Part shown: piece after piece, positions 2,167-25,922 of the stretch
Numbering within the stretch: the stretch's first letter is position 1
Layout of the letters: the number at the start of each line of letters is the position of its first letter
From: an uncultured Clostridia bacterium
GTDB taxonomy: Bacteria; Bacillota; Clostridia; Christensenellales; UBA1242
Length of the DNA: 25,922 nt
Direction of reading: 5' to 3'
Assembly: GCA_946612575.1 (NCBI GenBank)
Contig: CAMOEU010000001.1
Span: forward strand, 1 to 25,922
Notes under the pieces: generated by a model
The model's input: only the letters and a program-made list of their open reading frames with translations
Told to the model about the DNA's origin: nothing
Databases searched by the model: none
Program-made: the position numbers and the translations under genes

Positions 2167-3045
2167 GTGAAGACTAATCAAACAAAAGAACAGAATTTGA
2201 TAACTTTTTCTGGGGACAACAGTCAACTTTTTTGCAGAATAAAAATTGATGACCCTTTTGCAAACAAACTTACCTTGCTTGTTCCAGAAACACATAATGC
2301 AATTTTGATTAAAGATGGTCAAATGCTTCAAACACTCTCTTCTGGGAAATATTTGATTGCAAAGTTTGTGGATGCGAGAGTTGATTTGGATGCGACCTTG
2401 GAAGTTTTGTTTATGTCTAAGACTGCAAAACTCAAACTTCTTTGGGGGACATCTCAAATGTTTCCGCTCAATGATCCATTTTTGGAAGAAAACTACAAAG
2501 TTGGGATGAGTGGCGATTTTGATGTTCAGATTGGTGACCCAAGAAAATGTTATTTATATCTTGTAGGCGCAAACGAAAATCTTACTTCTGACGAACTTCA
2601 AGAAAGGCTTGTTATTACGGTTGTTTCTGTTTTGGAAAATGAAACTGCTGAATATGTGCAAACAAAACAGGTTTCGTTTAACCAACTTACAGTCAAAAAG
2701 AGAGAAATTTCTTCAAAGGTTTTGACAAAGATAAATCAACAACTTATGACAGATTATGGTATTGCAGTGTTTTCGTTTAATATTGCAAACATTGTGATTG
2801 ACCCAGGTGATTATCAAAGAATGATTGCCGCAAAGAAAGGCGAGGCTGTGAAGGTTGAAACAGAACAACCACAAACAAACGAAAAAGGGTTGTTTTGCAG
2901 TGAGTGTGGAAACAAACTCAGCCGTTCGGCAAAATTCTGTGACAATTGTGGTGCAAAAGTTGGAAGTGCAAATGTTTGCAAAAATTGTGGTGTAGAAAAT
3001 TCGGCGACTGCAAAGTTTTGTGAAAATTGCGGAAATAAATTGTAA
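2167..3045 (+). CDS. SPFH/band-7 domain protein (YdjI-like) with C-terminal double zinc ribbon
   Basis: 292 aa; 'LLVPETHNAILIKDGQ', 'LKLLWGT' and 'YGIAVFSFNIANI' fit the YdjI-type SPFH fold; four CxxC motifs (CSEC, CDNC, CKNC, CENC) from nt 2896; no TM segment. Confidence 0.8.
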   Translation: MKTNQTKEQNLITFSGDNSQLFCRIKIDDPFANKLTLLVPETHNAILIKDGQMLQTLSSGKYLIAKFVDARVDLDATLEVLFMSKTAKLKLLWGTSQMFPLNDPFLEENYKVGMSGDFDVQIGDPRKCYLYLVGANENLTSDELQERLVITVVSVLENETAEYVQTKQVSFNQLTVKKREISSKVLTKINQQLMTDYGIAVFSFNIANIVIDPGDYQRMIAAKKGEAVKVETEQPQTNEKGLFCSECGNKLSRSAKFCDNCGAKVGSANVCKNCGVENSATAKFCENCGNKL

Positions 3046-3056
3046 GGAGAAAAATT

Positions 3057-3461
3057 ATGTGGGTTTTTTATGTTTTGGTTTTGCTTGCGATTTTGGGAAC
3101 AGCATTCTTCTTTATCTGGAGAGAATATCATCCAAGAAAGGAAGATGACACAATCGGAAGCAGAGGAGTGCTTAAAAACAAGAAGTCTATTGAAAATATG
3201 GTTGCAAATGTTGAGAGTATAATTGTTTATGCAAATGGAAACGACACACTCTGCAACAGACTTGTTGATGTTAAGGACAATATAAAGTTTTTCAATCCAA
3301 CAACAAATCAAAAAGCAATTGCAGTTGACACAAAACTTGCAGCAAGACTTGATGACTTGAAAATTGCGGTTGCAAAAGACAACACTCAAGAGACTTGCTT
3401 CAGACTTTTGGAAGAGGTCGAGGCATATATTGTTCAAAGAAAAAAGGAAGAACAAAACTAG
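3057..3461 (+). CDS. N-terminally membrane-anchored helical hypothetical protein
   Basis: 134 aa; AAGGAG RBS overlapping the upstream stop; TM helix at residues ~2-21 followed by amphipathic helices. Confidence 0.75.
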   Translation: MWVFYVLVLLAILGTAFFFIWREYHPRKEDDTIGSRGVLKNKKSIENMVANVESIIVYANGNDTLCNRLVDVKDNIKFFNPTTNQKAIAVDTKLAARLDDLKIAVAKDNTQETCFRLLEEVEAYIVQRKKEEQN

Positions 3462-3821
3462 ATGAAAAGAAGATATGAAGCATCTGATTCGTTAAATGAA
3501 GAAGATAAACTCAGGGTGGAAAAGGAACTTAGACTTGGATATCTAAATCTGGGTGAGTTGTTTTTCGAGCAAGCAAGACTAAACTTCACTCTTGCACTTC
3601 AATATGACAGCAAATGTGCTGATGCTTATTGGGGACTTATGCTTTGCAAGTTTCAAGCAAAGTCAGAAGATTTGCTTTTTGAAAATCCTGTGGTGTATAA
3701 AGATGTTGTGTTGTTGCCAGAATATGAAAAGGCAATGACATTTGCAAGTGAAGAAAAGAGAAAAATTTACGAACAAATTCTTGAAAGAATTTATGCAATA
3801 ATTAAAGGCGAGAGTTGTTAA
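3462..3821 (+). CDS. Small stand-alone TPR-like protein
   Basis: 119 aa; starts immediately after the upstream stop; TPR-like 'FFEQARLNFTLALQYDSKCADAYWGLMLC'; similar to modules in the 1277-aa protein. Confidence 0.7.
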   Translation: MKRRYEASDSLNEEDKLRVEKELRLGYLNLGELFFEQARLNFTLALQYDSKCADAYWGLMLCKFQAKSEDLLFENPVVYKDVVLLPEYEKAMTFASEEKRKIYEQILERIYAIIKGESC

Positions 3822-3832
3822 AAGGAGAGCTT

Positions 3833-4447
3833 ATGTGGTGGCCATTTAGAAGAAACAAATTTAAAAAACTCAATCGTGAAGATTTGGTGAACTCAATTTG
3901 CGAACTTGAAAGACAAGAACGAACCGTGGAAGCGGAAGTTTTGCAAAAAATCAAAGAGATTGATGCTTTGATGGAAAAGGGAAAGAAAGAAAAAAGCAAG
4001 GATTTGCAACTTTTCTATGCGAAGAAAATCACAAATCTAAACGAAGAGAAAGAAACAAGTATGCAAAGGGGAATGTATTTGCTCTACAACATTCGCCTTA
4101 TGAACAGGCTTAAGGATGCATATGATAGCAACACATTCTTCAAGACTCAAACAAAAGTGCCATTGTCAGAACTTTTGCAAGATCAAAAAGGACTTGCCAA
4201 GTTTTTGAATAAGGCTCTTGAAACAAGAATTGCAAGTGAAGATGTGCTTACAAATGCAGATGAACTTTTCACAGAAGTTCAGGCAGCTTATGATGTTTCA
4301 CAACCAATTTATGGAGTAGGCAAAACGGAAGAAGATGTGCTTTCAATTTTTGAAAAAGAAGGACAACTTCGTGATGAAGAAGGTTTGGAAGAAGAACAAA
4401 CAAAGGTCGCAACCAAAAAGAAAAAACAAATAATGGAGGAAGAATAA
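3833..4447 (+). CDS. Snf7/ESCRT-III-like coiled-coil protein A (204 aa)
   Basis: Start moved from TTG 3815 to ATG 3833 (AAGGAG RBS). Aromatic/basic N-terminus MWWPFRRNK, long helical hairpin 'ELERQERTVEAEVLQKIKEIDALMEKGKKEKSKDLQLFYAKKITNL', acidic tail; adjacent to a second Snf7-like gene and a MIT-AAA ATPase. Confidence 0.55.
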   Translation: MWWPFRRNKFKKLNREDLVNSICELERQERTVEAEVLQKIKEIDALMEKGKKEKSKDLQLFYAKKITNLNEEKETSMQRGMYLLYNIRLMNRLKDAYDSNTFFKTQTKVPLSELLQDQKGLAKFLNKALETRIASEDVLTNADELFTEVQAAYDVSQPIYGVGKTEEDVLSIFEKEGQLRDEEGLEEEQTKVATKKKKQIMEEE

Positions 4448-4448
4448 A

Positions 4449-5039
4449 ATGGGACTTTTTAAATCAAAACAACAAAAAGAACTTGAAAAGAAAATGCTTA
4501 TCAAAAGGACAATAAACACAATGAACAAGCAAATCAACCGCTTGGAAGATCAAAAACAAGTGTTTATTGAAGCTGCAAAAAAAGCAAAAGAAAAGGATTT
4601 GGAAGCACAATATAACCTTGCACTCAGTGGTTATAAAATGACTGTCCAACAACAAAGAAGAGCACAAGAAATGCTTTTGAATTTTGAAATCACAGCTCAA
4701 ATGAAAGATGTGACAATGATGACATCAGACTTTCTTCGTGGAATGAGCGAAATCAGCAAGGAAATGACAAAACTTGCTGATGCAAAAGAATTTGCAAAAA
4801 TTCAAGCTCAATTCGAACAAGCTATGGTTGCTGTTGAGACTCAAACAGACCAAATGGACAACTTTATGGAAATGAGCCAAGAGACATTCTATAATGCAGG
4901 TCGTGACAAGTCAGGAAAAATGACTGATGCAGAATTTGAGAAGTTTATTGAAGAGCAGGCTGGACTTGACACTCTTTCTGATGACAAAATCAATAGCGAA
5001 ATTGAAGAACTTAAAAAGAAGATAGAATCTGAAAACTAA
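4449..5039 (+). CDS. Snf7/ESCRT-III-like protein B (Vps2/Vps24/Did2-like, 196 aa)
   Basis: GGAGG RBS. N-terminus MGLFKSKQQK; basic N-half and acidic C-half; Met-rich segment 'FLRGMSEISKEMTKLADAKEFAKIQAQFEQAMVAVETQTDQMDNFME'; C-terminal MIM1-like helix 'DDKINSEIEELKK'. Confidence 0.7.
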   Translation: MGLFKSKQQKELEKKMLIKRTINTMNKQINRLEDQKQVFIEAAKKAKEKDLEAQYNLALSGYKMTVQQQRRAQEMLLNFEITAQMKDVTMMTSDFLRGMSEISKEMTKLADAKEFAKIQAQFEQAMVAVETQTDQMDNFMEMSQETFYNAGRDKSGKMTDAEFEKFIEEQAGLDTLSDDKINSEIEELKKKIESEN

Positions 5040-5053
5040 CAAAAGGGAAGTTT

Positions 5054-6199
5054 ATGGCAGAAAAACCAAGTATTACTGTTTTGTCTGACACATATGACCT
5101 TTATATGAAAAAGGCAAAACAAGCGAAAGAAAATGGAAATCTCTCAATTGCAAAGAGAAATTTTCTTCTTGCCAGCCAAACAATGATGGAAATGGCAAAG
5201 CAAAGTGAAGGCAAGCTTAAAGAAATCAGAATGGACAGGGCAAGAAGGCTTGTCAAACTTACTGAAAACATTGACAAAAAGCCAGAGAAAATTGAAAAGA
5301 AATCTTCTGGAGAGTCAAACGAAGAAGATGATGAAGTAAAAAAATGGCAAACAGCACAAATTCCAAACATAACATTTGCTGATGTTGCTGGGCTTGATGA
5401 TGTCAAAAAATCTATCACAATCAGAATGATAAATCCTGTGAAATATCCAGAAAAATATAAGATGTATGGTAAGAAATCTGGTGGTGGTGTGCTTTTGTAT
5501 GGACCTCCAGGAACAGGAAAAACAATGATTGCAAAAGCTATTGCAAACGAAGTTGGTGCAAAGTTTTATGCTGTCAAGGGCTCAGATATTGTGAGTAAGT
5601 GGGTTGGCGAAAGTGAGAAAAACATAAACTCTTTGTTTGAAGAAGCAAACAAGCAAGATAGAGCCATCATCTTTATTGATGAAATGGACAATTTGCTCGG
5701 GACAAGAGGTGTTGACACTCACAACGACAAAAGAGTAAACGAATTTTTGCAGCAGATTGATGGTTTTGCTGGCAGAAATCAAAACTTGCTTTTGCTTGGA
5801 GCAACAAACAGGCCTTGGGATATTGACAGTGCAGCAACAAGATCTGGAAGATTTTCCGAGAAAATTTATTTGCCACTTCCTGATGCGGCTGCAAGAAAGT
5901 TTATGATAGAAAAAAATATGAAAAATGTGCCTGTCTCAAAAGATTTTGATATTGACAAAATTGTGGAACAGACAGAAGATTATAGCGGAGCTGATATTGA
6001 AGAACTTTGCGATAGAGCAAAGGATGAACCTCTTCTTAAGGCAATCGCGACAGACAGTGTTGTTGATGTGACAAACGAAGATTTTGATAGAGTTTTGGAG
6101 AAAATGCCTCCTTCTGTCACACCAAAAGAAATCGAAAGATTTGAAAAATACAACGAAGAAGTAAACGGACTTATAAAGAAAAACAAAAAACAAGGATAA
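5054..6199 (+). CDS. MIT-domain AAA+ ATPase, Vps4/CdvC-like
   Basis: 381 aa; three-helix MIT-like N-terminus, charged linker, single AAA module with Walker A GPPGTGKT (5501-5524), pore loop SKWVGESEK, Walker B IIFIDE (5666-5683), ATNRPW, Arg-finger RSGRF and C-terminal helix PSVTPKEIERFEKY. No TM or protease domain. Confidence 0.8.
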   Translation: MAEKPSITVLSDTYDLYMKKAKQAKENGNLSIAKRNFLLASQTMMEMAKQSEGKLKEIRMDRARRLVKLTENIDKKPEKIEKKSSGESNEEDDEVKKWQTAQIPNITFADVAGLDDVKKSITIRMINPVKYPEKYKMYGKKSGGGVLLYGPPGTGKTMIAKAIANEVGAKFYAVKGSDIVSKWVGESEKNINSLFEEANKQDRAIIFIDEMDNLLGTRGVDTHNDKRVNEFLQQIDGFAGRNQNLLLLGATNRPWDIDSAATRSGRFSEKIYLPLPDAAARKFMIEKNMKNVPVSKDFDIDKIVEQTEDYSGADIEELCDRAKDEPLLKAIATDSVVDVTNEDFDRVLEKMPPSVTPKEIERFEKYNEEVNGLIKKNKKQG

Positions 6200-6201
6200 A
6201 A

Positions 6202-9200
6202 ATGAGAGAAAGGGTTTGTAAAAATTGTGGAGGAAGACAATATAAAGTTGTTGGGCAGAATATGGTCAAATGCCAGTTCTGTGGGACTCTCTATGTGGAT
6301 GAACAAGCCTCAAAAGAAGAAGAAATTTTGCTTGTTTCTGCAAACGAAAAACTTAGAGATGCAAAGTTTGCGGATGCAATTGTAGAGTTTGACAAGATTC
6401 TTTCCATATACCCAAACTCGTTTGAAGCTTTTTTTGGAAAATCTCTCGCCAAGAATAAAATTGTGTTTTACACAAACAAAAAAGGCTCGGGGAAAAGACC
6501 AAGATATTTTGGAGACAAAATCCCACAACTTTCAAATGATGATGATTTTCAATCTGCAATAAACAGTGCTCCTGAAGAAATTGAAAAGGAGTATGGTGAT
6601 ATTGCAAAGAGAGTTGAAAGAGACATAAAAAAATATTGTGAAATTGACAAGTCAAAAGGCTGTGATGTTGTCATTTTCCAAATGAGTGAAGATGGTATTG
6701 ACAAAACAGAAAAACTTGTCAAAAAACTTAATTCAAAAAAAATAGAAACATACTTTTTGCAAGAACTTGAGACAAAAGAAAATGAAGCAGAGACCTTCTA
6801 TGCTCTTTCTTGTGCAAAAGTTTTGCTTGTTGTTGCAAACAAGAAAAATGGATATAACGATAGTGATGTAAAAAATCTTATTGATAGATTCAGATATTTT
6901 ATTTCTCAAAGACAGAAATATTCTATGGGATTTGTTATTGCATATGACAACAATGTCATTGAGAAAGAAAATTTGCCACAAGAACTTGGTTTTTGCAAAA
7001 ATTATGTTGATTTCAATTCCAAAAATTTTGTGGATTATATGACTGCAAACATTGAGACTGTGATTGAAAAAACACCACAGGAAGTTGCAAAAATTGAAAC
7101 AAGAAAAGTTGAAAAAGTTGAACCTATAAAGAAAGAATATGTTGATGTTGAAAACATTACACCAGCCGAACTTGGGCATTATAAAGTTCAAAATGTTGAA
7201 GCGAAAGATGCAATAAAGACAAAGTGGATTTTCCTTAGTTTGAAAAATGCCGATTTTGAAGCGACAGAAAAACTCATTGAAGCCGAACTTGAGAAAGATC
7301 CAAACAATGCCGAAATGCTTTTTGCACAAATGCTTTGTGAAAAAAGATTAAGGACAGCAGGCGAATTTTTTGAAAGCATATCAAATTTTGATAACAAAGA
7401 GAAAATAGACAATATTCTTGCTTACTCTTCAAAAGAGTTTGCTGAGATGTTTGTTGACAACTGGGAAAGACTTATTGAGAGTATTGACAGCGATGATTGC
7501 TACAACACATATCTTCTTTATCTTGCAAAATTTGACACTCCAAACAGAGAACATTTTGTGGAGTGTGCACAAGAAGTTGCTGTTGAGACAATGAATGAAG
7601 AGCTTATTGACAATGTTTTGAAATGCTTCAAAAAAGATGAAGTTGATAAGTATGTTAAGTTTTATTTCGAACTTGCTCAAAAGAGCGACAATCAAAAATA
7701 TTATGACAAAATTCTTGAGATTGACCAAGGTCATAAGCAAAGCAATATGTCGCTGCTACTTAGAAACTTTAAGACAAATCAAGACAAACTTGAATTTAGA
7801 GACAGAGAAAAAATTGAAGATAGCCTAAAATTTTTGGATGATGATGCAAGAAGTCAGTTTGCTTTTGCTGTGATAAATCTTGTTATTCCTGTTGCATTTT
7901 TGGATTTGAAAAAGGCTGAAGAGCAGATTGATTTTTATCTTTCTTATGTTGATCCAAAAAATTATGAAATCCCATACAATATTGCAAAGAAGTTGCTTGA
8001 TGTAAATTCTTTCAGATTGGCTGAAAAATATATCGCTATTGCAATTTCAAGAAATAAAAAAGATGCGACACTTTATTGGGAGCTTTTAAAGATAAAAGCT
8101 CATTGCAAGACTGATGCTGAAGTTGTGACATCTCCAGTTGACTTGACACAATTCCCTGAATGGCAAACTTTGCTGAATTATGCAAACGATGAACAGACAG
8201 AGCAATATGCAGAAATTGTCAGCAAATCACACCTTTATAAAGGCAAAAAGAAGCAGATTGCTGAAGAACTTATTGACAAACAATCAATGATTGAGAAATT
8301 GACTGATTTCTTAAACAGAAACAACAAAATTTTGCTTGAAAATGAAGAAGAAAACGGAATTGTTTCTGTCAAAGGTTGTGAATATTTCAAGATTCAACTT
8401 TCACCATTTGAAGATTATTTAAACATTGTCAAAGATGTTGAAACTTTTGATGATTATGTTGCAATTGCATCACATATTTATCAAAGACTGTTTTTCCTTG
8501 GATTGACACTTGAAAGTTCGGTAAGTTCGATTCAGATAAATGAAAAAGGTGAAGGTCTTAAAAATGTCGAAATTGGAAGAAGTCTTTCTTTAGGTCACAA
8601 AAAACAAAAGAAAATAAAAACAAACAAAACAAAAGAAGAAAGACTTGTTGATCCGGAACTTATTGAAAGAAGAAAGAAATTTTGGAAACTTTTCTTTTTT
8701 GGATTTTTTGAGATTTTCCCTGTTTTGTTTTTGACGATTTTGTTGACAATTAACATAGGTAATTCAAAACTTGTTTATGCTTATTTTTCACAAAAAGCAA
8801 TTCTAATTATGATGCTTTATTCTGTGGTTGTAGGCTTTGGAAATCTGATTTATTATATGCTAAGAAAGAAAAAATTTGCGATAAAGAAAAAGCTTTCATT
8901 GATTTTTCTTATGATATTTGCTTTTTTGAATGTTATTCTTCTTGTAATTGGATTTTATTTGACTGATAATACAATCAGAATTTACAACGGAAATGAATTT
9001 GAAACTTTTGTAAATAATGCAACTTATTCAAATATTGAGATTGAAAATGATATTAATTTCAAAGGAAAGGAAATTTCGGTTGGAGATTTCTATGGAAAAA
9101 TTGATGGAAAAGGTTTTTCGTTAAATAATGTTGCATTGAAACAAACAGAAAACACGGCGATGATCCGTAGCAATTTTGGGACAATCAAAAATCTGAAAAT

Positions 9201-10035
9201 CAATCTTGAAACAAAAACATACAGAAATATTTCAAACTTTGCAGTGATTGCGATAAACAATTATGGAGAGATTATTGGTTGTGAAATTTCTGGAAATGTA
9301 AAAATCTATGCAAAAGATTCATTAAATTGTGGTGGATTCACAACATATCAATGTGCAGGAGAAATAACAGAATGCACTGATAATACAAATATTGAAATTG
9401 CAAACCTGAAAAAAACTGGAAAGCTTGGAAAACTTGCTGCAGTGGTGAGTGGAAAAACAAGTTTTGTAAAAAATGAAACTTATGGAAGTTTCAAAATTTC
9501 TGAAAATGAATGCGAAATGGTGTATTTTGGTGGACTTGCTGGTTATGTTGATGGAGATTTTGAATGCAAATTTGAACAAAATGCCGCAAAAACTGATATA
9601 AATGTAAATGTTTTTTCAAAAAGTTTAACGATTGGTGGGCTTTTTGGTTATTCAACAAAATCAAGCAAAAACAACTATGCCGATTTTAACATTAGTAATG
9701 TAAACACCAACAACGGAAATGTTGGCGGACTTTATGGCGAGTTTGTTTGCTACAATCCGGCTGATGCAATAGCTTTTAGTTATGCGAAGATGAATTTAAG
9801 TATCTCAATGACTGGTCATGTGGGTGGAATTGTCGGTGGAACACACGGAAGCATCAAAAATTGTTTCTTTAAGGCTAATGAGTTATTAAATATTGCTTCA
9901 GGGCAACAAATTGATATGACGACAATTTCAAATTGTATGAGCAATTTGGAAGGATATAAAAAAGCTCTTGGCTTCAGCTCAGAATATTGGAATGGTGTGA
10001 ATGAAGATTCTTCTAATTATCCAACTTTAAAATAA
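6202..10035 (+). CDS. Large membrane receptor-like protein: Zn ribbon - TPR - TIR-like - TPR region - 3 TM - extracellular GLUG-type repeat domain
   Basis: 1277 aa; CKNC...CQFC at the N-terminus; TIR-like segment at ~153-290 ('ALSCAKVLLVV...DVKNLIDRF...LPQEL'); TM helices at ~827-853, 866-887 and 898-920; C-terminal GGLAGY/GGLFGY/GGLYGE/GGIVGG repeats. Confidence 0.7.
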   Translation: MRERVCKNCGGRQYKVVGQNMVKCQFCGTLYVDEQASKEEEILLVSANEKLRDAKFADAIVEFDKILSIYPNSFEAFFGKSLAKNKIVFYTNKKGSGKRPRYFGDKIPQLSNDDDFQSAINSAPEEIEKEYGDIAKRVERDIKKYCEIDKSKGCDVVIFQMSEDGIDKTEKLVKKLNSKKIETYFLQELETKENEAETFYALSCAKVLLVVANKKNGYNDSDVKNLIDRFRYFISQRQKYSMGFVIAYDNNVIEKENLPQELGFCKNYVDFNSKNFVDYMTANIETVIEKTPQEVAKIETRKVEKVEPIKKEYVDVENITPAELGHYKVQNVEAKDAIKTKWIFLSLKNADFEATEKLIEAELEKDPNNAEMLFAQMLCEKRLRTAGEFFESISNFDNKEKIDNILAYSSKEFAEMFVDNWERLIESIDSDDCYNTYLLYLAKFDTPNREHFVECAQEVAVETMNEELIDNVLKCFKKDEVDKYVKFYFELAQKSDNQKYYDKILEIDQGHKQSNMSLLLRNFKTNQDKLEFRDREKIEDSLKFLDDDARSQFAFAVINLVIPVAFLDLKKAEEQIDFYLSYVDPKNYEIPYNIAKKLLDVNSFRLAEKYIAIAISRNKKDATLYWELLKIKAHCKTDAEVVTSPVDLTQFPEWQTLLNYANDEQTEQYAEIVSKSHLYKGKKKQIAEELIDKQSMIEKLTDFLNRNNKILLENEEENGIVSVKGCEYFKIQLSPFEDYLNIVKDVETFDDYVAIASHIYQRLFFLGLTLESSVSSIQINEKGEGLKNVEIGRSLSLGHKKQKKIKTNKTKEERLVDPELIERRKKFWKLFFFGFFEIFPVLFLTILLTINIGNSKLVYAYFSQKAILIMMLYSVVVGFGNLIYYMLRKKKFAIKKKLSLIFLMIFAFLNVILLVIGFYLTDNTIRIYNGNEFETFVNNATYSNIEIENDINFKGKEISVGDFYGKIDGKGFSLNNVALKQTENTAMIRSNFGTIKNLKINLETKTYRNISNFAVIAINNYGEIIGCEISGNVKIYAKDSLNCGGFTTYQCAGEITECTDNTNIEIANLKKTGKLGKLAAVVSGKTSFVKNETYGSFKISENECEMVYFGGLAGYVDGDFECKFEQNAAKTDINVNVFSKSLTIGGLFGYSTKSSKNNYADFNISNVNTNNGNVGGLYGEFVCYNPADAIAFSYAKMNLSISMTGHVGGIVGGTHGSIKNCFFKANELLNIASGQQIDMTTISNCMSNLEGYKKALGFSSEYWNGVNEDSSNYPTLK

Positions 10036-10067: not shown

Positions 10068-10754
10068 ATGGTCAAAAATCTATATGTGGATTGTGTTTTT
10101 CTCGTTTTTTTAATGATTGGAGCGATAAAAGGTGCTAAAAAGGGTGTTTTTGGCAGTTTTTTCAAGGTTGTAGTTTTTATTTGTTCAACAATAGCTGCGA
10201 TTTTTATCTCAAACAAAATTGTCGAATTGTGGCTTAGTGAAAGTGAGATTGGGGTTTGGCTTGAAAGTCAGATGTCTGCATTTATTAAAAATATATGTAA
10301 AAATGTTGAGACAAAAGAAGATTTTTTAAATTTTTTGCAACAAAAAAACAACATTATTGCAATAATTATGACAAAAATTATTGATAGAATTGAAATTGGA
10401 CAAGGGGATAGTTTTATTGAAACTATTTCTCAAAAAATAACTGTCATACTTGAAAAAGCGGTTGTTTTTATAATTGTTTTTCTTATTGTATATATCTTTT
10501 TGAGAAAAATAACAAGTTTTGCTGGAAAAATATCAAAAATAAGTGTAGTTGGTGGTGTTGATAAAATATTTGGTGTTTTGTTTGGTGTGGCAAAAGCAGC
10601 AATCTTCTTTGGGATTTTCTATTTTGGTGTTGGTGTTTTGTCAAATTTAGTGCAAAATCAAATTTTGACAAACTTAATGCAAAACGACAAAATGGTTAGT
10701 GTTTTATATAATATGGTATATGAAAAAACAATCAGTGTGTTTTTGCCATACTGA
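10068..10754 (+). CDS. cvpA: CvpA family (colicin V production) membrane protein
   Basis: 228 aa; 'VDCVFLVFLMIGAIKGAKKGVFGS' at the N-terminus and 'DKIFGVLFGVAK' near the C-terminus are CvpA family motifs. No clear RBS. Confidence 0.8.
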   Translation: MVKNLYVDCVFLVFLMIGAIKGAKKGVFGSFFKVVVFICSTIAAIFISNKIVELWLSESEIGVWLESQMSAFIKNICKNVETKEDFLNFLQQKNNIIAIIMTKIIDRIEIGQGDSFIETISQKITVILEKAVVFIIVFLIVYIFLRKITSFAGKISKISVVGGVDKIFGVLFGVAKAAIFFGIFYFGVGVLSNLVQNQILTNLMQNDKMVSVLYNMVYEKTISVFLPY

Positions 10755-13132: not shown

Positions 13133-16100
13133 ATGAAAAAATTTAGGATAGCATTGATGTCGATTTTTACATTGCTTCTTGGCAGTGTGCTTGTTGGATG
13201 TAATTTCAAAAAACCTGAAATTGATTTCTCAAAAGAGCAGGTTTATATTTCTGCGGGAGAAGAAGTTGATCTTAGAGGTCTTTTGAATGTGAAAGAGGTC
13301 GATGCAAAAGATGTTAGGTTTAGATTTGAAGATTCTTCACTCTTTCAAGTTTCTGAAGGAAAGATAAAAGCAAAGAGTAGAAGTGGTGAGTCTTATGTTT
13401 ATGCCACATACAACAATGATGTTTTTGCCTCAATTAAAGTTTTTGTTAAACAAAAATTCTCAACACCTAAAAACTTTTCAATGAATGAAAATGGACTTAT
13501 CTCTTGGGACAAGTCACTTGCGATTTACAGCAGTGAAACAACACCTACATTTGCAAGCTCTTATAGAGTTTATGGAACATACACTTCATACACTGGCGGG
13601 CAAGAAAACGAACCTGAAACATTTGAAGTTTTCTCAAACACAAATTCATATCAACTTGAAAACGAAGGTGTTTACAATATCAAAATTGTTGCACAAGGCA
13701 CGGACAGATTTGATGCTAGTGCAGAATATGCCGTTCAGTCATTTGGCTTTGGATATATGCCAAAAATTGCAACAGCAGATTTGATTTGGTCAAATGATGG
13801 TGTTCTTTCTTGGGAAACAACTGAGATTGAAAATGCGGAATACGAAGTTTATGTTGACGGCATTAAGGTTGTTGACAAACAATCACAAAAGAGTGCAGAC
13901 CTTTCAGAGTTGTTTGACGAGCTTCAAGCAAAAAATCATACAATCAAAGTTGTTGTTTATGATGCTGTTGGCGACAAAATGCCTACAGAAAGCGATGCAA
14001 TTTCTGTTTTGAAGTTGGCAAGTCCTGTTGCTACATATGCTTTTTCAGCAGAAAATGGTGGGCTTATTTCCTTGGGAGCAAATCCACTTATTGATCACTA
14101 TAAATTCACACTTGTTGGTGATGATGAAGAAGTTGTCACAATCGACAATGAAGAAGATGGAGTTTTGACTTCACTTGATATGATTGATGCTGGTGTTTAT
14201 TCACTTTCTATCCAAGCAATTGCCGTTGAAGGAAATTATTATCAAAGTGACAAAGTTTCTTTTGGGAAAATCTACAAACTTGAAACATTGACTATTTCAG
14301 GAACAGACAAGAATGTTGAGAATTCAAACACATTCAATCTTCTTGCAAGTGCAAATGCAAGTGTTGACACAATTCTTTCAGTTAATGTTGGGGAAACAAA
14401 AACAACTTCAATCGGGATTGAAGCTGGGGAAACAAGTGCCGAATTTGAAGTGGAAGTTCCTTCAAATGGTATTTACTCTGTTTCTGCAAAGCAATTTGCA
14501 AAGGAAGAGCAAAACACAATCTTTGGAGAAAGAGTTTATGTTTTGAATTCAAACTTGAGTGAAGCAGTTGTTGTTGAAAAACTTGAAGCAATTTCAAACA
14601 TCACTCACGAAATTGAAAGTGAAAAATCTGTTTTTGTTTTCGATGAAGTTGAAAATGCTGACAAATATGAAGTGTTTGCACTTGATGGAGAAGAGTTTGC
14701 TCTAGTTGACAGCAGTTTGTATTCTTGCGAGATTTCTCAAGGCAAGGTTAGATTTGTTTTTGATGACAAAATTGAAAACTTGAATGTTGCACAAAATGAA
14801 AAAGTGTTTACGATTAAGTTTGTTGCAAAGAAAAATGATGAAACCCTTACAATAAACTCTGCAAAACAAAAAGTTTTGACCGAACTTGATATAGCAGGAA
14901 ATGTGGAAAAAGAAAACTTAAACAAAGTTTATTCTTGGACTGCAGTGGAAAATGCAGATGCCTACAGGGTGGGAATTTACAACATTGACAAAGCTACATT
15001 TATAGCAGGACAAACAGACATTGACACGACTACACTTGACAAAAATGAAGAAGTTGTCGATACAAATTCTTATACATTTGCAAACGAAGGATATTATCTT
15101 GTCAAAGTTTTCTCACTTACTGAAAATGCAAATGAGTTTATAAACTCAACAGAGTCTTTTGACAGACTTGTTTGTGTTTCTGAAAAACTTGTTGTTGAAG
15201 ATTTTGATGTAAGTTTTGTTGGTGGAAAATATAATGTTGTGATTGAAAATAAAGACCATTTTGATAAATATGAGGTTTATCTTGATGATGTGAAGATTCT
15301 TGACACAACAGCAAGCAGTGAAGAAAACTCAACATATATTCTTGAAACAGATTTTGCTGATGAAACAAAAACTTACAAGATTGAAGTTGTTGCAAAAGCA
15401 AATGATAATGTGCTTTATGAAAATTCAGAGAAAAAGGCAGTGAGAGTTGTCAAACTTCCACAAATTGTTGGGGAAGATATTGAAATTGCAAAACAAAGCA
15501 TTGCCGTGGGCTCAGATATGAAAACAGCAACACAATCACAAGAAATGAAAGTGAGTGCTGTTGAAGGTGCAAGAGGAGTGCTTCTCTATCAAGAAACAAA
15601 CCCAGCAGAAAGAGCTGGCGGAGAGGATGCAACAACCGCAACATATGACCTTGGCACAATTGCAAACACAAACTTTGTGTTTAAGTATTTTGGTTCTGCA
15701 AAACAAGGGAATGTTTTTGTAAAGACAAATGGATATATTTATCTTGACAGTGAAGAGTCAACAATAAACATTTCTAGACTTGAAACTCCAACAAATTGTG
15801 AATATGTAAACGGAGTCTTGAAGTTTAATAATACAAACACAGCAATCACAGAATATTATGTTGTGACAATTGTGTGCAAAGGACAAGATGGAGAAAGAAG
15901 AAACATTGTTGTCGAACTTTCAACAGAAGCAAAAGCAACTTATGGAGAAAATTCTGAAGTTATTGGAAATGGCGGCGACTTTGTTTCAAATAATGTAAAT
16001 GAAGTTTCAATTTCCATTGAAGATCTCATTGAAGCTGTTTCAAATGTTTCTGATGTTGAAATCAGACAAGTTTACTCTCAAGCAGCAAGCTTTGGATTTG

Positions 16101-19100
16101 CTGTTTACAGTTATGCAAATATAGTTAACGATGATGCTGTGGTTTCGTCTTCAAACTATGCCGGCACAGCTTTGGATGCAAACACAAAAGTTGTTGTTGT
16201 GGAAAAGATGACTGCTCCAGAAATTTCTTACCAAATAATTGGAGAAAACATTGTCTTCAATTGGGATGCGGTTTCAACTGATGCTGCAGTTTCTGCACAA
16301 ACAACATATCAAATGTTTGTAAATGGAAACGAATATGGACAAGTTATTTCTGGCACTCAAACAGCAAGTTATGCTTTGAGCGAATTTGCCCTTGGAACAT
16401 ATTATACATTTGCACTCACTGCACCAAATCCAAATTATATAGAATCGAGTCTTTCAAACAAAGTTAGAATTTTTAGACTCAACAAAATTACTTCACTCAA
16501 ACTTCTTACTGGTGGGGACTATGATGGACAATTGCAATATGAATTGTCTTCACAAGAACAAGAATTTGTAGATTATGTTTTGGTTGGTGAAGAACATAAT
16601 CAAACAGGAAAAATTGAAATTTCTGCTCCAGGTGCAATTACACTTAAAGTTGTTGGAAAGAAAAATGTCGAAAGTCAAGATATGACAACAACATACATTG
16701 ACAGTGAAACAACAACTTGGACTCTCAGTCAAATGCAAACACTTAAACCAGCATTGGAAAACTTTGAATATAACAATGGTGTTTTGAGCTGGGATGAATT
16801 TGCTGAAGGAAATAATTTTGAAAACCTTAAATATGTCTTGATTTTCACTGATTCTCAAGATAATATCGTTTCTTACACAACAAATCAAAACGAAGTTTCG
16901 ATAAGTGAAACAACATTGGATGAGACATTGCAAAGACTTGTTGAAGGAAACATTGACATCTCACTTTATGCAAAACTTGAAACTTATGATGTTGTCGCTG
17001 GCGGAACAATTTATTACAGCAACAAGATAACACTTGAAAATGATTTTGAAGTTGCAAACTATCATAAATATGCAAACACACTTTCAATTTCAAAACTTCC
17101 TACTCCAGTTGTTTCGAATGTGGAATTTGTTGAAGATAGCACAAATGGAATTTACAACACTCCAAATATTGAAATAACATTTACAGGCGACTATGGAAAC
17201 GAAGCAGACTTTGTTGTTTCTTCAAACATTGATGGACAAGAAATCACAACAGAAACTGTTAAGCTTACAAAGAATGCTGATTCATATAAATATGTAATGC
17301 AAGCAGAAAAGTATAAAAACAAGTTTGCAAGCGGCAAAACGATTGTATTCAAAATTGCTGCAATCAGTGAAGAAAACATTCCTTCATCTGTGGGAAGTGT
17401 GAATGTCCTTTGTGCAAACACAATATCTGGATTTGAAATCAAAGAAGATAAAAACGGAGAAGGTCTTTCTCACTTGCTTCAAATAAATGTTGCACAAGCT
17501 GATGTTCAAAAAACTGCTGGCGGATTTGATTTGGCATTTGGGATTATTGAAAATGGCGGCTCTGAAAAATATATTCATATTCAAAAGAGTGTGTCAACAG
17601 TTTCTACAACACAAACTTTTGACATTACAGATGTGATTGAAACACATTTGGCAAATGGCGGATTCTTGACAATTTCAATTACGACCCGCTCTTATTCAAA
17701 TGCGGAAAGTGGTGTATATATTCTTGCATGTCCTACATATTACATTCTACCTAAGTATGATGTTTTGTCAGGAGTGACTCAGGCAAACATAACAAAAACT
17801 GCTGGTGGATTTGAAATTGATAAAACAGTAAATAATGAAACAACAAAATATAAAGTTGTTTATGGTGCAAATGTTTATGATGTTATTTATAAGGATGACA
17901 AATTCTATTTTGAAGTTCCAACAACTTGGGTAAATGGAAATTATGAACTTAAAATCTATGCCGTTGAAAGTGATTATATTTATTCAAAACAACTCAACTA
18001 TACATTTGTGTTAAACAGAATTGATAATGTGACAAATGTGTCAATCACAAGAGACAGCGAAGATCTTTCTGATGGAAAAATTGAATGGACAAATGTTTCT
18101 GGTGCAGCTGGATATATGCTTAGAATTTATAGTGACAACACAAGAAGCAAAGAAATAACAAGGGTTTCATCTTCTACAAATTCTTTGAAATTCAGCGAAA
18201 TCTTCACAGAAGAATTTTATGACGAACTTAGAATAAACGAAGAAGATAAAGATATTTTTGTTGGAATTGCTGCACTTGGACAAAATGAAACCGCAAACGA
18301 TTCTCAAGAATACACATTCAATGCAAAAGTTTGTGGAAATTACTTTGATGTTGAAGAAGAAATTAAACTCAACGAATATGGTTTGGTGACATTCAAAGCA
18401 ACTGCTGGAAAAACATATATCTATAGATTTGTTGACACGGCTGGACAAGTGCTTTCTGATTGGGTTGAGGTGACAGCGGAAGATGATATTGTCACAATTG
18501 ATGCAAGTGTTTTAAATAGAGATTCTTCAAACAATGTTAGACCTGCCGGAACAGTTTTTGACATTCAAATTATTGTTGTGGGAAGTTATGATGGTGACAC
18601 AATTTCATTTAACTCAAAACCAGTTTCGACAGAAGACTCTGATGTGAAATTCTTGATTAATGCTGAAATAAGTAAAATAGAATACAATTCAAGTTATGCA
18701 GAATATATCACATTTGAAATGCAAACATTTGAAGCTGCATCACAAGGTGAAGAAGACGAAGAGTCTGAAGAAGAAAGCAGTGCTATTGACATTTTGTATT
18801 ATGGTGTCGAAGCAGATGCAATCAAGACAGGAAAAGTTTCATATATAACTCCAAAGGTTTTGAAGAACAATGATGATGGAACAAGCATTTATGGATGCAA
18901 ACTTATCGATTTGATTCTTGATATGACAAGTGAAGAAAATGTTGAGAAATTTGGAGAACTTCCTTCAGGAGATACAACAATTTATTTCTGGTCATACAGA
19001 AAAGACGACGGTGAGATTTTGAATGACTACATAAATTCTCCAGCAAAAGGATATGTGATAAATCACACCGCTGATGCAAACTTTGTTGGAATAGAAAAAT

Positions 19101-22100
19101 ATGGACTTCCAGAAGATGCTCAATTCCAAGAAGATTATGCAAACACATTTGCACTCTTTGAAACAAATGAAACATTATTAAATATGAATGTTGGTGTTGT
19201 TGTGAGAGTGACTGATGGAAATGAGACAATCACTAAGTTTATCAGTCGAGCAGAAATGGTTGGCAACGAATATTTTGAAGGTAGAGATGTGATTGTTGCA
19301 AACCTTACAAACCTTTTTGAAACAACAAACGGTTTGAAAGATATGTATGGTGATTTGACAATTGATATTCTTAGAGTGAAAATACAAACATTGACTCAAA
19401 GATTTGTGATTTCAGATTGGACAGAAGCAATTGAGTTTAAGAGAATTCAAGGTGTTGACAAAATCACACTTTCAGCAGGAGCAGTTTCTTGGAAACCAAA
19501 AGACACATACAATGGAAGTTTCTATGTTTATTTGATAAGTAAAGATGCTTATGATGAAGAGACTGGCATAATTGATGGAAACTATTCAGTGTTTAGAACA
19601 ACAAACACATACTTCTCAATTATGGATAAAATCACTGAAGACGATGAATTCTATATTGCAATTCAAGCAATTGGACTTCCAGACAACATTTTGCCATCAG
19701 CTAAATTGTTTGTCATGGAAAACGGCAAAGCAAAGCTTATCAGAAAAAACAAAATAACAAACAAACTCAATCTTGAAAACGGAAACTTGTCATTTGATTG
19801 GACAGGTTCTGATTTGATTGAATTCTTGAATGGTGTAGATGAAGTGTCTGTGACTAAAGTAGATGAATTATACAAGAGCACTTTCAATATTCCATTCACA
19901 TTCAACATTACTGATTTTGTAAAAGAACAATATGTTGTTAGATTTAGATTTACAAATAAAGAAACAAACAAAGTTCAAACATTTGATGTTGATGCACAAG
20001 AATTTGTGACAAATGAATTTTTGACGGAAACAGTACCTGGAAAAGATTATACTTACGAGCAACTTCTTACAAATCTTGCAACAATTGCAGGCTCAACAGT
20101 TCAAAAGAATGAAATAAACACTTTTGTAAGCATGCTTAAAAAATCAAGACTTGGAGTGGGAAATTCTAAAAACTTGTTTGATGATTATTTTGAAACTCTT
20201 CAAGCAGGCAATTATAGTCTTGAATACAGCCTTGTTGGAAGAAACTATTCAATAAGCTCAAATTGGGTTTCTTTTGAAAATGCTCAAGGAGAAAATAGTG
20301 TTTATGTTTTGAGACAACCAAACATTAAAGTTCTCAGAACTCCAAGCAATACTGATTCAAGCAAAAACTATTATAAAGTGTTTATCAAAATGGTAAGTTT
20401 ACACTATTTTGAAAACGGTGTTGACACAGAGAAACTTGCCGAACACTATGTTTGGAAAGTTTATAAGAAAACGGAAGAGGGTGAAAATGCATTTGTGTTT
20501 GACATCCAAAAGTCAGGAGATGACTATGCTGTTTCACTTCTTGGTGTTGATGGTTATAATGCAAAAGCAATTAGATGCGATGAAAACGGAAATGCAGATG
20601 CAGATGGAATGTATATAATGTTCTATCTCAACTTGGAAGAAGATTCAATTCTTGGCAGATTTGGAAACGAATTTGATAAGACAAACTACAAATTCCAAAT
20701 TTATGCAGTTGGAAATGATCTTTGCATTTCAAGTAAAACAGAGATGTTTGAAATCGTATTCCTTGGTTTTGATACAGGACTTAGTGTTATTGATGGTGTG
20801 TTTAATTGGACAACACAGATGAATAGAAACACAACAGTTATCTATAAGAAAGATTCATCTATAGAAGAAAAGAAAGTTGTTTTGAATGGAAGTGGAAGTT
20901 CGATAACATACAGCCTTGAAGGTGCTGGACTTTACAATTACATTAAGTTTATATCATTTGGTGAAGTTGCAGGAAACAAAGTTTATGTTGACAGCGAAAT
21001 TTACACATTCAAAAATGTTTATAAACTTGAAAAACCTGTTTTGCAAAACTTAAATGGAAATATTGCAATCAATGACAGTGGAAACAAAACATGGATAGAA
21101 AAATGTTATTCAACAACAAGCCTTTACAATTATAGGATATACAACAATGTTTCTACAGAAACTTCATATATAACATTTGTGGATGGTAATGAAGCAAAAG
21201 ACTTGTATATGTATGAGCCTGGCACAACAAACATAGAAAGTTCAGATCCAAATTTTGAATACAAAAAGACAGAATTTGACCCTGCAATTCAAACATTCTA
21301 TGTTTCAAGCATAGGTTCGACATCTAGATTTGTGTTTGAAAAAGATCCTGAACAAAACGGTGTTATAAATGCTTATTGCAAAGAAGAAAAGGATGGAGAA
21401 GAAGGTAAAAACAACCTTAGTATTGCAATTTCAAGTGATATTGCTGATTTCAATGCAAAAATGATGAATACAGTTTCAAAAGTTGAAATTAAGGATGGTA
21501 TTATAACTTGGAATAAAGTTGAGAAGAGTGTTTTGAACTATGGTGATGATGAAACTATGGACTTGACCTTGCCAAACAAGACATACACAGTTTATAAAGT
21601 CACAATCGAACAATACAACGAAAAAGGTGGTGTTCCAGAAAATAGCGAAGCGGTTGACCCAATTTTGATTACAAAATATACAACAAAAGAACAATTTGAC
21701 TTTGCATATCTCTCAGAGAGTGAATTCAGTGAAGATGCAGAATATATCAAAGTGACAGTTCAAGCACTTGCATTGTCTGTTTCACAAACAGTTCCTGAAG
21801 GAATTGCTGACAATATGTGGGTAAGACTTGTTGACGGCAGAATTGGTTATGGCCTTACACAATATCAAGAGAGATATAAAGAAAATGAAGATGATATTGG
21901 AACAAAATTCTATGTGTTGCTTGGACAAGGTGCATCTATCGATCAAATAACACACACAGCACATGTTGATGACAATTCTCTTAAAGTTGAAAATGGAAAA
22001 GTTTATTGGACATACACTCTTGATGGTGCAATTGCAAATTATGGCGAAGATTATGATTTGTTTAAAAATTATCAATTTACTATATTTGACAAAGATTCAA

Positions 22101-25199: not shown

Positions 25200-25922
25200 A
25201 TGGAAAACACAAAAATTAGAAACATTGCTATTATTGCCCATGTCGATCACGGCAAGACTTCTCTTGTAAACGAATTGCTCAAGCAAGGAAATGTTTTCAG
25301 AGACAATCAAGTTGTTGAAGACAGAGTTATGGATTCAAATGCAATTGAAAGAGAAAGAGGTATCACAATTTTGTCAAAAAATACTTCTTGCTTTTATAAT
25401 GATGTAAAAATCAATGTTGTTGACACACCAGGACATGCTGACTTCGGTGGAGAAGTTGAAAGAGTTTTGAAAATGGTTGATGGTGTTTTGCTTGTTGTTG
25501 ATGCTTTTGAAGGTCCAATGCCACAAACAAGATTTGTTTTGGAAAAAGCTTTGTCACTTGGACTTAAAGTCGTTGTTGTTATAAACAAGATTGACAGACC
25601 AGATGCCAGAATAAAAGAAGTTGTGGATGAAGTGCTTGAACTCTTCCTCGAACTTGATGCTGATGAAGAGCAACTCAACTCTCCATTTGTTTTTGCATCT
25701 GCAAGACAAGGAATTTCTTCAACAGACATGAATGTCGTTGGAACAGACATGAAGCCACTTTTCGAAACAATCATAAAACATATTCCTGCACCAAGTGGTG
25801 ACAGTGAAAAACCACTTAGAATGCTTATTTCTTCTGCCGAACACAACGAATATGTTGGAAAACTTGCTGTAGGAAAGATTGAAGAAGGAACAATCAAAGT
25901 TGGTCAAAATGTTGTTGTTTGC
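25200..25922 (+). CDS. typA: Translational GTPase TypA/BipA, 3'-truncated
   Basis: Not in the ORF track; translated by hand: MENTKIRNIAIIAHVDHGKTSLV...MDSNAIERERGITILSKNT...DTPGHADFGGEVERVLKMVDGVLLVVDAFEGPMPQTRFVL...NKID. G1-G4 motifs and the TypA-specific signature are present. Confidence 0.97.
   Translation, partial: MENTKIRNIAIIAHVDHGKTSLVNELLKQGNVFRDNQVVEDRVMDSNAIERERGITILSKNTSCFYNDVKINVVDTPGHADFGGEVERVLKMVDGVLLVVDAFEGPMPQTRFVLEKALSLGLKVVVVINKIDRPDARIKEVVDEVLELFLELDADEEQLNSPFVFASARQGISSTDMNVVGTDMKPLFETIIKHIPAPSGDSEKPLRMLISSAEHNEYVGKLAVGKIEEGTIKVGQNVVVC

Follow-up and report, generated by a model that had tools for sequence, protein, structure and literature searches.

Gene organization of the locus

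The DNA analysed here (the window) is a stretch of 25,922 nucleotides, contig C1 in the genome bin of an uncultured Clostridia bacterium; the bin measures 0.69 Mb and is 86% complete. Gene A lies in it within a co-directional run of seven genes on the plus strand (positions 2167-10035), which has a promoter-like site ahead of it (2105-2145) and within which no strong terminator-like site was found on the plus strand. The genes of the run and the ribosome-binding sites of A and B are as follows.

2167..3045, plus strand: SPFH (Band_7_1) protein with two C-terminal zinc ribbons, the first gene of the cassette
3057..3461, plus strand: small protein of 134 amino acids with one N-terminal transmembrane (TM) helix
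3462..3821, plus strand: helical protein of 119 amino acids, close clade only
3822..3829, plus strand: Shine-Dalgarno site of gene A, AAGGAGAG, read from sequence
3833..4447 including stop, plus strand: gene A, a conserved open reading frame (ORF) for a sequence-orphan helical protein of 204 amino acids
4435..4440, plus strand: GGAGGA, Shine-Dalgarno site of gene B, lying within the final codons of A; 1-nt gap between A and B
4449..5039, plus strand: gene B, 196 amino acids, Snf7/CdvB-like with the MIM1-like end DDKINSEIEELKKK (Foldseek, Pfam, MIM1 pattern)
5054..6199, plus strand: Vps4/CdvC-like AAA+ ATPase (NCBIfam CdvC, Pfam AAA and Vps4_C)
6202..10035, plus strand: 1277-amino acid Zn-ribbon/TPR/TM/GLUG-like protein, the variable last gene of the operon

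Gene A starts with ATG at 3833 and stops with TAA at 4445-4447; its ATG is 4 nt from AAGGAGAG and 11 nt from the stop of the upstream gene. The protein begins with MWWPFRRNKFKK, contains KGKKEKSKD at residues 49-57 and YAKKI at residues 62-66, and ends in TKKKKQIMEEE. Each sequence feature quoted in an earlier, sequence-only reading of this DNA (the N-terminus, the turn, YAKKI and the acidic tail) is thus found in the ORF. Homologues occur in 435 clusters defined at 90% identity, as well as in 100 defined at 50% identity, and synteny is conserved in 66 genome loci, so this ORF is beyond chance; it is a real, conserved gene.

The 3' end of gene A, ATGGAGGAA(GAA)TAA, holds GGAGGA, the ribosome site of B. 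In 54 of 64 loci, A and B are separated by 1-4 nt and the site of B falls within the ...MEE codons; in a clade at ~50% identity, A tails diverge and B has its own ribosome site. The acidic tail with its MEEE end is indeed present in A, as the earlier reading had it, but it is not a family-wide protein motif: we rejected MEE(E) as an acidic protein motif because the overlapping ribosome-binding site of gene B explains the codons. Since this site lies inside the last codons of A at such a short distance from B, the two genes are, judging from these signals, translationally coupled; the coupling would fit production of A and B at a fixed ratio.

Conservation of the gene cassette

Five genes (SPFH, small protein, A, B and ATPase) are conserved in all 66 loci of the genome collection that are long enough, and the same five-gene cassette is found in metagenomic relatives, where the identity of A falls to 25-32%. 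The SPFH gene is located upstream of A in both near and far relatives, and the gene for the small protein directly upstream of A in distant loci. The ATPase gene lies downstream of A-B in all 66 sufficiently long loci and in the distant locus L068, mostly directly, although ~3.3 kb off in L062. The two-subunit system proposed for A and B agrees with these data: they are always encoded together with the ATPase, and they are translationally coupled. Two genes of the run do not belong to this core. The 119-amino acid protein is missing from distant loci and, except for one short displaced match in L066, from the loci at ~50% identity. Similarly, the 1277-amino acid protein is not kept in distant loci, and other lineages have different genes after the ATPase.

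Protein B is a clearer ESCRT-III relative than A. Its top eight Foldseek rows are CdvB/CdvB2, and Pfam Snf7 is matched by 4 of 20 members of its family (best E 7e-4). The ATPase matches the NCBIfam CdvC model with an E-value of 8.5e-63 over model positions 7-367 of 370, and Pfam Vps4_C with an E-value of 2.3e-5. Because Pfam MIT gave no match to ATPase residues 1-110 (window 5054-5383) up to E 10, assignment of an MIT region rests on the full-length CdvC model.

The gene order differs in the metagenomic locus L097 (5138-8838), which reads B, ATPase, SPFH, small protein, A. A therefore remains grouped with SPFH and the small protein after rearrangement, and this order suggests that the cassette consists of two sub-modules. 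One metagenomic protein, P0178 (309 amino acids), has the small protein (residues ~10-98) fused to an A-family domain (115-301), a single case that may be an assembly or frameshift artefact. Among the proteins of 439-2000 amino acids that were searched, no fused A forms were found. P0149 and P0179 were examined as candidate A-B fusions and rejected, their C-terminal extensions being unrelated; in P0149 the A domain is followed by a Pro-rich linker and a beta-rich C-terminal domain.

The TM helix of the small protein in the window is not found in its counterparts in L068 (485-796), L097 (7867-8205) and L070 (1720-2073). The starts of these proteins are MGFFDRRR or MCFFRRKK in L097 and L070, basic and aromatic like those of A and B, and MGNKNKLF in L068.

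Distribution of the A family

The A family is a sequence-orphan without a Pfam model. The 100 clusters at 50% identity were found among 1.84 billion protein representatives, and close homologues carry the names Candidatus Caccovivens or uncultured Clostridia and come from gut samples; one relative is annotated as Oscillospiraceae. In the taxa sampled the family is narrow and patchy. A phylum-wide sample contained A in 1 of 401 genomes, that being its own genome, with four further marginal matches (E 4e-5 to 7e-4) to short stretches of proteins of other lengths. Within the order, 11 of 151 genomes, belonging to several families, carried A, as did two of four other congeners. One genome of the same order (G479) has two A-family copies, on contigs C33 and C29 (E 1e-57 and 7e-51).

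Relative to the reference cassette, identity in distant loci is 25-32% for A, 37-48% for B and 40-50% for the ATPase. Most likely, A is the faster-evolving second subunit of the cassette.

Predicted structure and motifs of protein A

An AlphaFold2 model of A was built from an alignment of 48 family members with 19-83% identity (pTM 0.56). It contains helices at residues 15-52, 56-106, 118-152 and 165-203. The parts of the protein, with the helices and the turn taken from this model, are listed below.

3833..3874, plus strand: N-terminal segment, residues 1-14, MWWPFRRNKFKKLN, net charge +5, with W2, W3, F5 and F10; candidate membrane anchor
3875..3988, plus strand: helix alpha1, residues 15-52, pLDDT 87-97
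3989..3997, plus strand: hairpin turn, residues 53-55, part of KGKKEKSKD, with family-wide conservation of the KGK tip
3998..4150, plus strand: helix alpha2/3, residues 56-106, including YAKKI and RGMYLLYNIRL
4184..4288, plus strand: helix alpha4, residues 118-152, including the conserved LAKFLNKAL; pLDDT only 56-68
4307..4354, plus strand: conserved C-terminal motif IYG...(D/E)x(L/I)LxxFE, residues 159-174; candidate alpha5 or docking element
4325..4441, plus strand: helix alpha5 and acidic tail, residues 165-203, pLDDT 78-87, net charge -7

The helical hairpin proposed from sequence is predicted confidently (pLDDT 87-97); it spans ~100 residues and turns at GKKEKSKD, exactly where claimed, so the long alpha1-alpha2/3 hairpin, whose absence would have spoken against a Snf7-like protein, is there in the model. 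The later helical region resolves into two further predicted helices, at residues 118-152 and 165-203.

All 48 family members have a basic and aromatic segment ahead of helix 1, with a net charge of +1 to +11 (median +4) and one to seven aromatic residues (median 3), which bears out the aromatic N-terminus noted earlier. N-termini in the family often begin with MG(L/F)F or MWxF, and in the relatives P0138, P0189 and P0153 the segment is extended, with a longer hydrophobic or amphipathic stretch. In A itself, the helical hydrophobic moment of the segment is low (0.15-0.5) and a proline (P4) is present.

Protein A is split by charge: residues 1-106 have a pI of 9.46 and a net charge of +6, and residues 107-204 a pI of 4.52 and a net charge of -10. 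Nearly the same split into a basic N-half and an acidic C-half is seen in B. The C-terminal IYG...(D/E)x(L/I)LxxFE motif is present in 38 of the 48 members and, to our knowledge, is not among the motifs known from ESCRT-III. Pro-rich tails were found in two of the 48. A relaxed MIM1 pattern matches none of the 48 A-family tails, so that the lack of an obvious MIM1 in A extends to the whole family, versus nine of 19 B-family tails; one B-family tail, DNDIESRLDKVK, matches the strict pattern. The suggestion that B and not A carries the ATPase-recruiting motif is in line with this pattern, the MIM1-like sequence being at the end of B. MIM1/MIM2 motifs are not defining for all ESCRT-III proteins.

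Relationship of protein A to ESCRT-III proteins

None of the Pfam, NCBIfam and PADLOC families is matched by A. Neither Pfam Snf7 (PF03357) nor Pfam PspA_IM30 (PF04012) matched any of the 48 family members up to an E-value of 1. When searched against the whole genome, the Snf7 profile found nothing and PspA_IM30 gave a single match, away from A, at E 0.036. Profile searches of the PDB with A, using two alignments, returned no ESCRT-III chain, and BLASTP gave no link between A and B. In profile-to-profile comparisons with hhalign, the A family scored a probability of 0.4% against the Snf7-like B family and 5% against 13 Bacillota PspA sequences, the latter covering the first 25 residues only. 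Relatedness of A to ESCRT-III cannot be shown by sequence, and sequence methods say nothing on this kinship, neither for nor against.

Some structure and language-model comparisons do point to ESCRT-III. In Foldseek, which compares local structural letters together with sequence, rows 1-5, 7, 8, 10, 11 and 13 against the PDB are Vipp1 (8qhx, the first row), Asgard ESCRT-IIIB (9ftl), CHMP2A-CHMP3 (7zcg) or CHMP1B; the best two have probabilities of 0.98 and 0.97 with E-values of 0.08 and 0.12, and every E-value is at least ~0.08. In the ESM Atlas, eukaryotic Snf7 is the only named family matching A over its full length, with a TM-score of 0.69 (query) or 0.63 (target) and an rmsd of 3.7 A over 177 residues, both sides being predicted models; other named rows cover 102-137 residues, that is, the hairpin only. 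Among the language-model neighbours of A, 20 of the 30 nearest named clusters are Snf7-labelled and bacterial (score 0.93, 184 shared features), a score of 0.9 or more being reached also by 4-10% of shuffled proteins.

We also aligned the A hairpin (residues 7-114) rigidly to 48,161 PDB representatives. Snf7 (5fd9) and Asgard ESCRT-IIIB both scored a Z of 10.6 and PspA 10.3, while unrelated hairpins scored as high or higher (CT398 12.3, IpaB 11.6, Rad50 and prefoldin ~10.4). Because unrelated coiled-coil hairpins reach equal or higher Z-scores (10-12), the hairpin is a generic shape and not specific to ESCRT-III. Its dimensions are those of Snf7 and CHMP4: residues 17-116 of A superpose on residues 18-120 of Snf7 (5fd9) with an rmsd of 2.6 A over 100 residues, and residues 15-91 on residues 19-97 of CHMP4B (4abm) with an rmsd of 1.2 A over 77 residues. 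Snf7 and CHMP4B need no change in length, whereas in PspA (4whe) 109 positions align to A over a range of 140 residues.

Taking together the Foldseek rows, the Atlas match to Snf7, the language-model neighbours, the charge asymmetry and the hairpin length, we estimate a probability of about 55% that A has an ESCRT-III fold with Snf7/CHMP4-like dimensions, as judged from predicted models. The proposal that A is Snf7-like is thus partly supported, by the hairpin, the charge split and the structural neighbours, but no sequence or profile method links A to Snf7, PspA or B.

The generic shape of the hairpin and the uniformly negative sequence and profile tests would also be expected if A were non-homologous to ESCRT-III and served as a system-specific coiled-coil adaptor, as a tether between the SPFH/small-protein platform and either the B polymer or the ATPase, in a role functionally comparable to that of CdvA, or of B. 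subtilis YdjI recruiting PspA. That A is grouped in L097 with SPFH and the small protein and not with B, that it is naturally fused to the small protein in P0178 and that in distant loci it evolves faster (25-32% identity) than B (37-48%) or the ATPase (40-50%) fits such an adaptor as well. An adaptor of this kind accounts less readily for the full-length match to predicted Snf7 models (TM 0.69, 177 residues), for the predominance of ESCRT-III chains in the top Foldseek rows and of Snf7 labels among the nearest named language-model clusters, or for a charge asymmetry and an N-terminal motif that mirror those of B. We therefore regard a non-homologous adaptor as rather unlikely, while noting that an adaptor role and an ESCRT-III fold can both hold.

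Another question is on which branch an ESCRT-III-like A would be placed. The best Foldseek PDB row is Vipp1 8qhx (probability 0.98), with many more Vipp1/PspA rows, and A remains beside SPFH in L097. The first cassette gene encodes a Band_7_1 SPFH protein with zinc ribbons, and the SPFH protein YdjI localises PspA in B. subtilis (PMC10936438). A could accordingly belong to the PspA/Vipp1 branch and not to the Snf7 branch, the cassette then combining a bacterial PspA-SPFH module with an archaeal-type Snf7-Vps4 module. Although hhalign pairs A, over its first 25 residues, with the start of PspA alpha0 (P 0.0076), its probability is just 5%, and Pfam PspA_IM30 finds neither A nor its 47 relatives. 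In PspA 4whe the hairpin is ~30 residues longer than in A, where its length is that of Snf7/CHMP4, and the Atlas and language-model neighbours are labelled Snf7, not PspA. Placement in the PspA/Vipp1 branch thus appears very improbable. From its predicted shape, charge pattern and gene neighbours, A is a probable second bacterial ESCRT-III-like subunit, encoded beside the clearer Snf7-like B and the Vps4-like ATPase.

Comparison with known systems

Among known proteins, A shares most with Snf7/CHMP4/Shrub and Asgard ESCRT-IIIB (B-type, PF03357), namely the length and register of the hairpin and the predicted full-length helix layout (TM 0.69). It also shares the basic N-half and acidic C-half, the aromatic and basic N-terminal segment, which resembles the ANCHR motif of Snf7, the lack of MIM1 and, as neighbours, a partner with MIM1 and a Vps4-like ATPase. 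In contrast to these proteins, A has no detectable sequence similarity to them, its host is bacterial, and its operon adds an SPFH/Zn-ribbon protein and a small helical protein.

The pspA-ydjGHI operon of B. subtilis resembles the cassette in being bacterial and in combining Band_7_1 SPFH and zinc-ribbon elements with a helical-hairpin membrane protein; YdjI is the SPFH partner of PspA (PMC10936438, PMC7619361). Unlike PspA/Vipp1, A has a shorter hairpin and is missed by PF04012, and the cassette has a Vps4/CdvC-like ATPase and a Snf7-like partner, both of which canonical Psp operons lack.

In archaeal CdvB/CdvB1/CdvB2-CdvC and euryarchaeal Meth_adaptin loci, as in the cassette, several ESCRT-III-type subunits adjoin a Vps4/CdvC ATPase, and the Meth_adaptin loci also carry an SPFH/coiled-coil/Zn-ribbon protein (Makarova et al. 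2024, PMC10936438). However, no winged-helix or adaptin-like proteins were seen in the cassette, and A does not match CdvB-type proteins in sequence, the CdvB rows in Foldseek coming from B and not from A.

According to a recent review, bacteria appear to lack a Vps4-like ATPase that acts on ESCRT-III (2025, PMC7619361). Ravi et al. (2024, PMC11237479) report that Vps4-like ATPases have been transferred to bacteria, a TPR/6TM protein taking the place of snf7, and that bacterial Snf7-clade proteins are paired with AAA+ ATPases. Their loci resemble ours in having an archaeal-type Vps4-like ATPase in bacteria beside a TPR/TM protein, but differ in that snf7 is displaced, whereas here two ESCRT-III-like helical genes lie directly upstream of the ATPase. 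We found no description of the A family in the passages of that paper that we read. The new details of the present locus are that MEE(E) is the Shine-Dalgarno site of B, that the genes for A, SPFH and the small protein stay together upon rearrangement, and that the small protein and A are fused in P0178.

If A is a true ESCRT-III-fold subunit, gut Clostridia hold a two-subunit ESCRT-III set with one ATPase, tied to an SPFH scaffold, and would provide a small, tractable bacterial model for studying how MIM-less and MIM-bearing subunits share their work. The A family, which comprises ~100 clusters at 50% identity and is covered by no Pfam model, would also illustrate, given its probable fold assignment, how far ESCRT-III-like proteins can drift past profile detection.

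Proposed function

In ESCRT-III systems labour is divided between Snf7/Vps20-type and Vps2/Vps24-type subunits. By analogy with the order Snf7/Vps20, Vps24/Vps2, Vps4, an SPFH/small-protein platform would assemble at the membrane first. A would then be anchored to the cytoplasmic face of the membrane through its conserved basic and aromatic N-terminus, and its hairpin would polymerise, with A co-polymerising with B. The IYG...LLxxFE helix might dock either on an adjacent subunit, or on B, or else on the platform of SPFH and small protein, and the ATPase would be recruited through the MIM1-like tail of B. Since A has no MIM1 and the tail of B is MIM1-like, turnover of A by the ATPase would run via B. 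Membrane binding and nucleation by A and its co-polymerisation with B, as also suggested by the sequence-only reading, are drawn from this analogy.

Extending the analogy, the cassette could reproduce in bacteria the two-class logic of Asgard and eukaryotic ESCRT-III, leading from a MIM-less, anchoring and nucleating Snf7/Vps20-like A through a MIM1-bearing Vps2-like B to Vps4, and wired to SPFH and the small protein; we consider this fuller scheme quite doubtful. As to origin, the split gene order in L097 points to two modules, and the cassette may be a bacterial SPFH-PspA-type module (SPFH, small protein and A) joined to an archaeal-type Snf7-Vps4 module (B and ATPase).

FtsZ is present in all five close relatives, with or without A, and is missing only from this 86%-complete bin, where its absence is best read as an assembly gap. 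The cassette as a replacement for FtsZ was rejected, FtsZ being present in these relatives irrespective of A. Coexistence with FtsZ and the patchy distribution of A (two of four congeners) argue for an accessory role, and membrane repair, remodelling or vesicle formation are more likely than cell division.

Genome sizes were compared between this bin (G000) and the relatives G432, G519, G493 and G543. By clostridial standards the genomes of the genus are very small: those estimated to be 100% complete measure 0.8-1.0 Mb, and this bin, at 86%, measures 0.69 Mb. Such sizes suggest a reduced, possibly host- or partner-dependent lifestyle.

Other features of the locus

In the distant locus L096 (4818-7802), genes for a PP2C phosphatase, a Ser/Thr kinase and a VWA protein lie directly upstream of the SPFH gene. 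These neighbours are reminiscent of the kinase and phosphatase genes carried by archaeal 'Main'-clade ESCRT loci (Makarova et al. 2024, PMC10936438). L096 also encodes a giant surface-type protein near the cassette (Bact_surface_Ig-like, >3100 amino acids), similar to an ORF of 3701 amino acids at 13133-24238 of the window, whose first 1500 residues are nearly devoid of Pfam signal. The remaining features of the window include a tRNA-Ala (TGC) gene at 1114-1190 on the minus strand, a CvpA/Colicin_V-family membrane protein directly after the operon (10068-10754, plus strand) and, at the window end (25200-25922, plus strand), the start of a gene for an EF-Tu-type GTPase.
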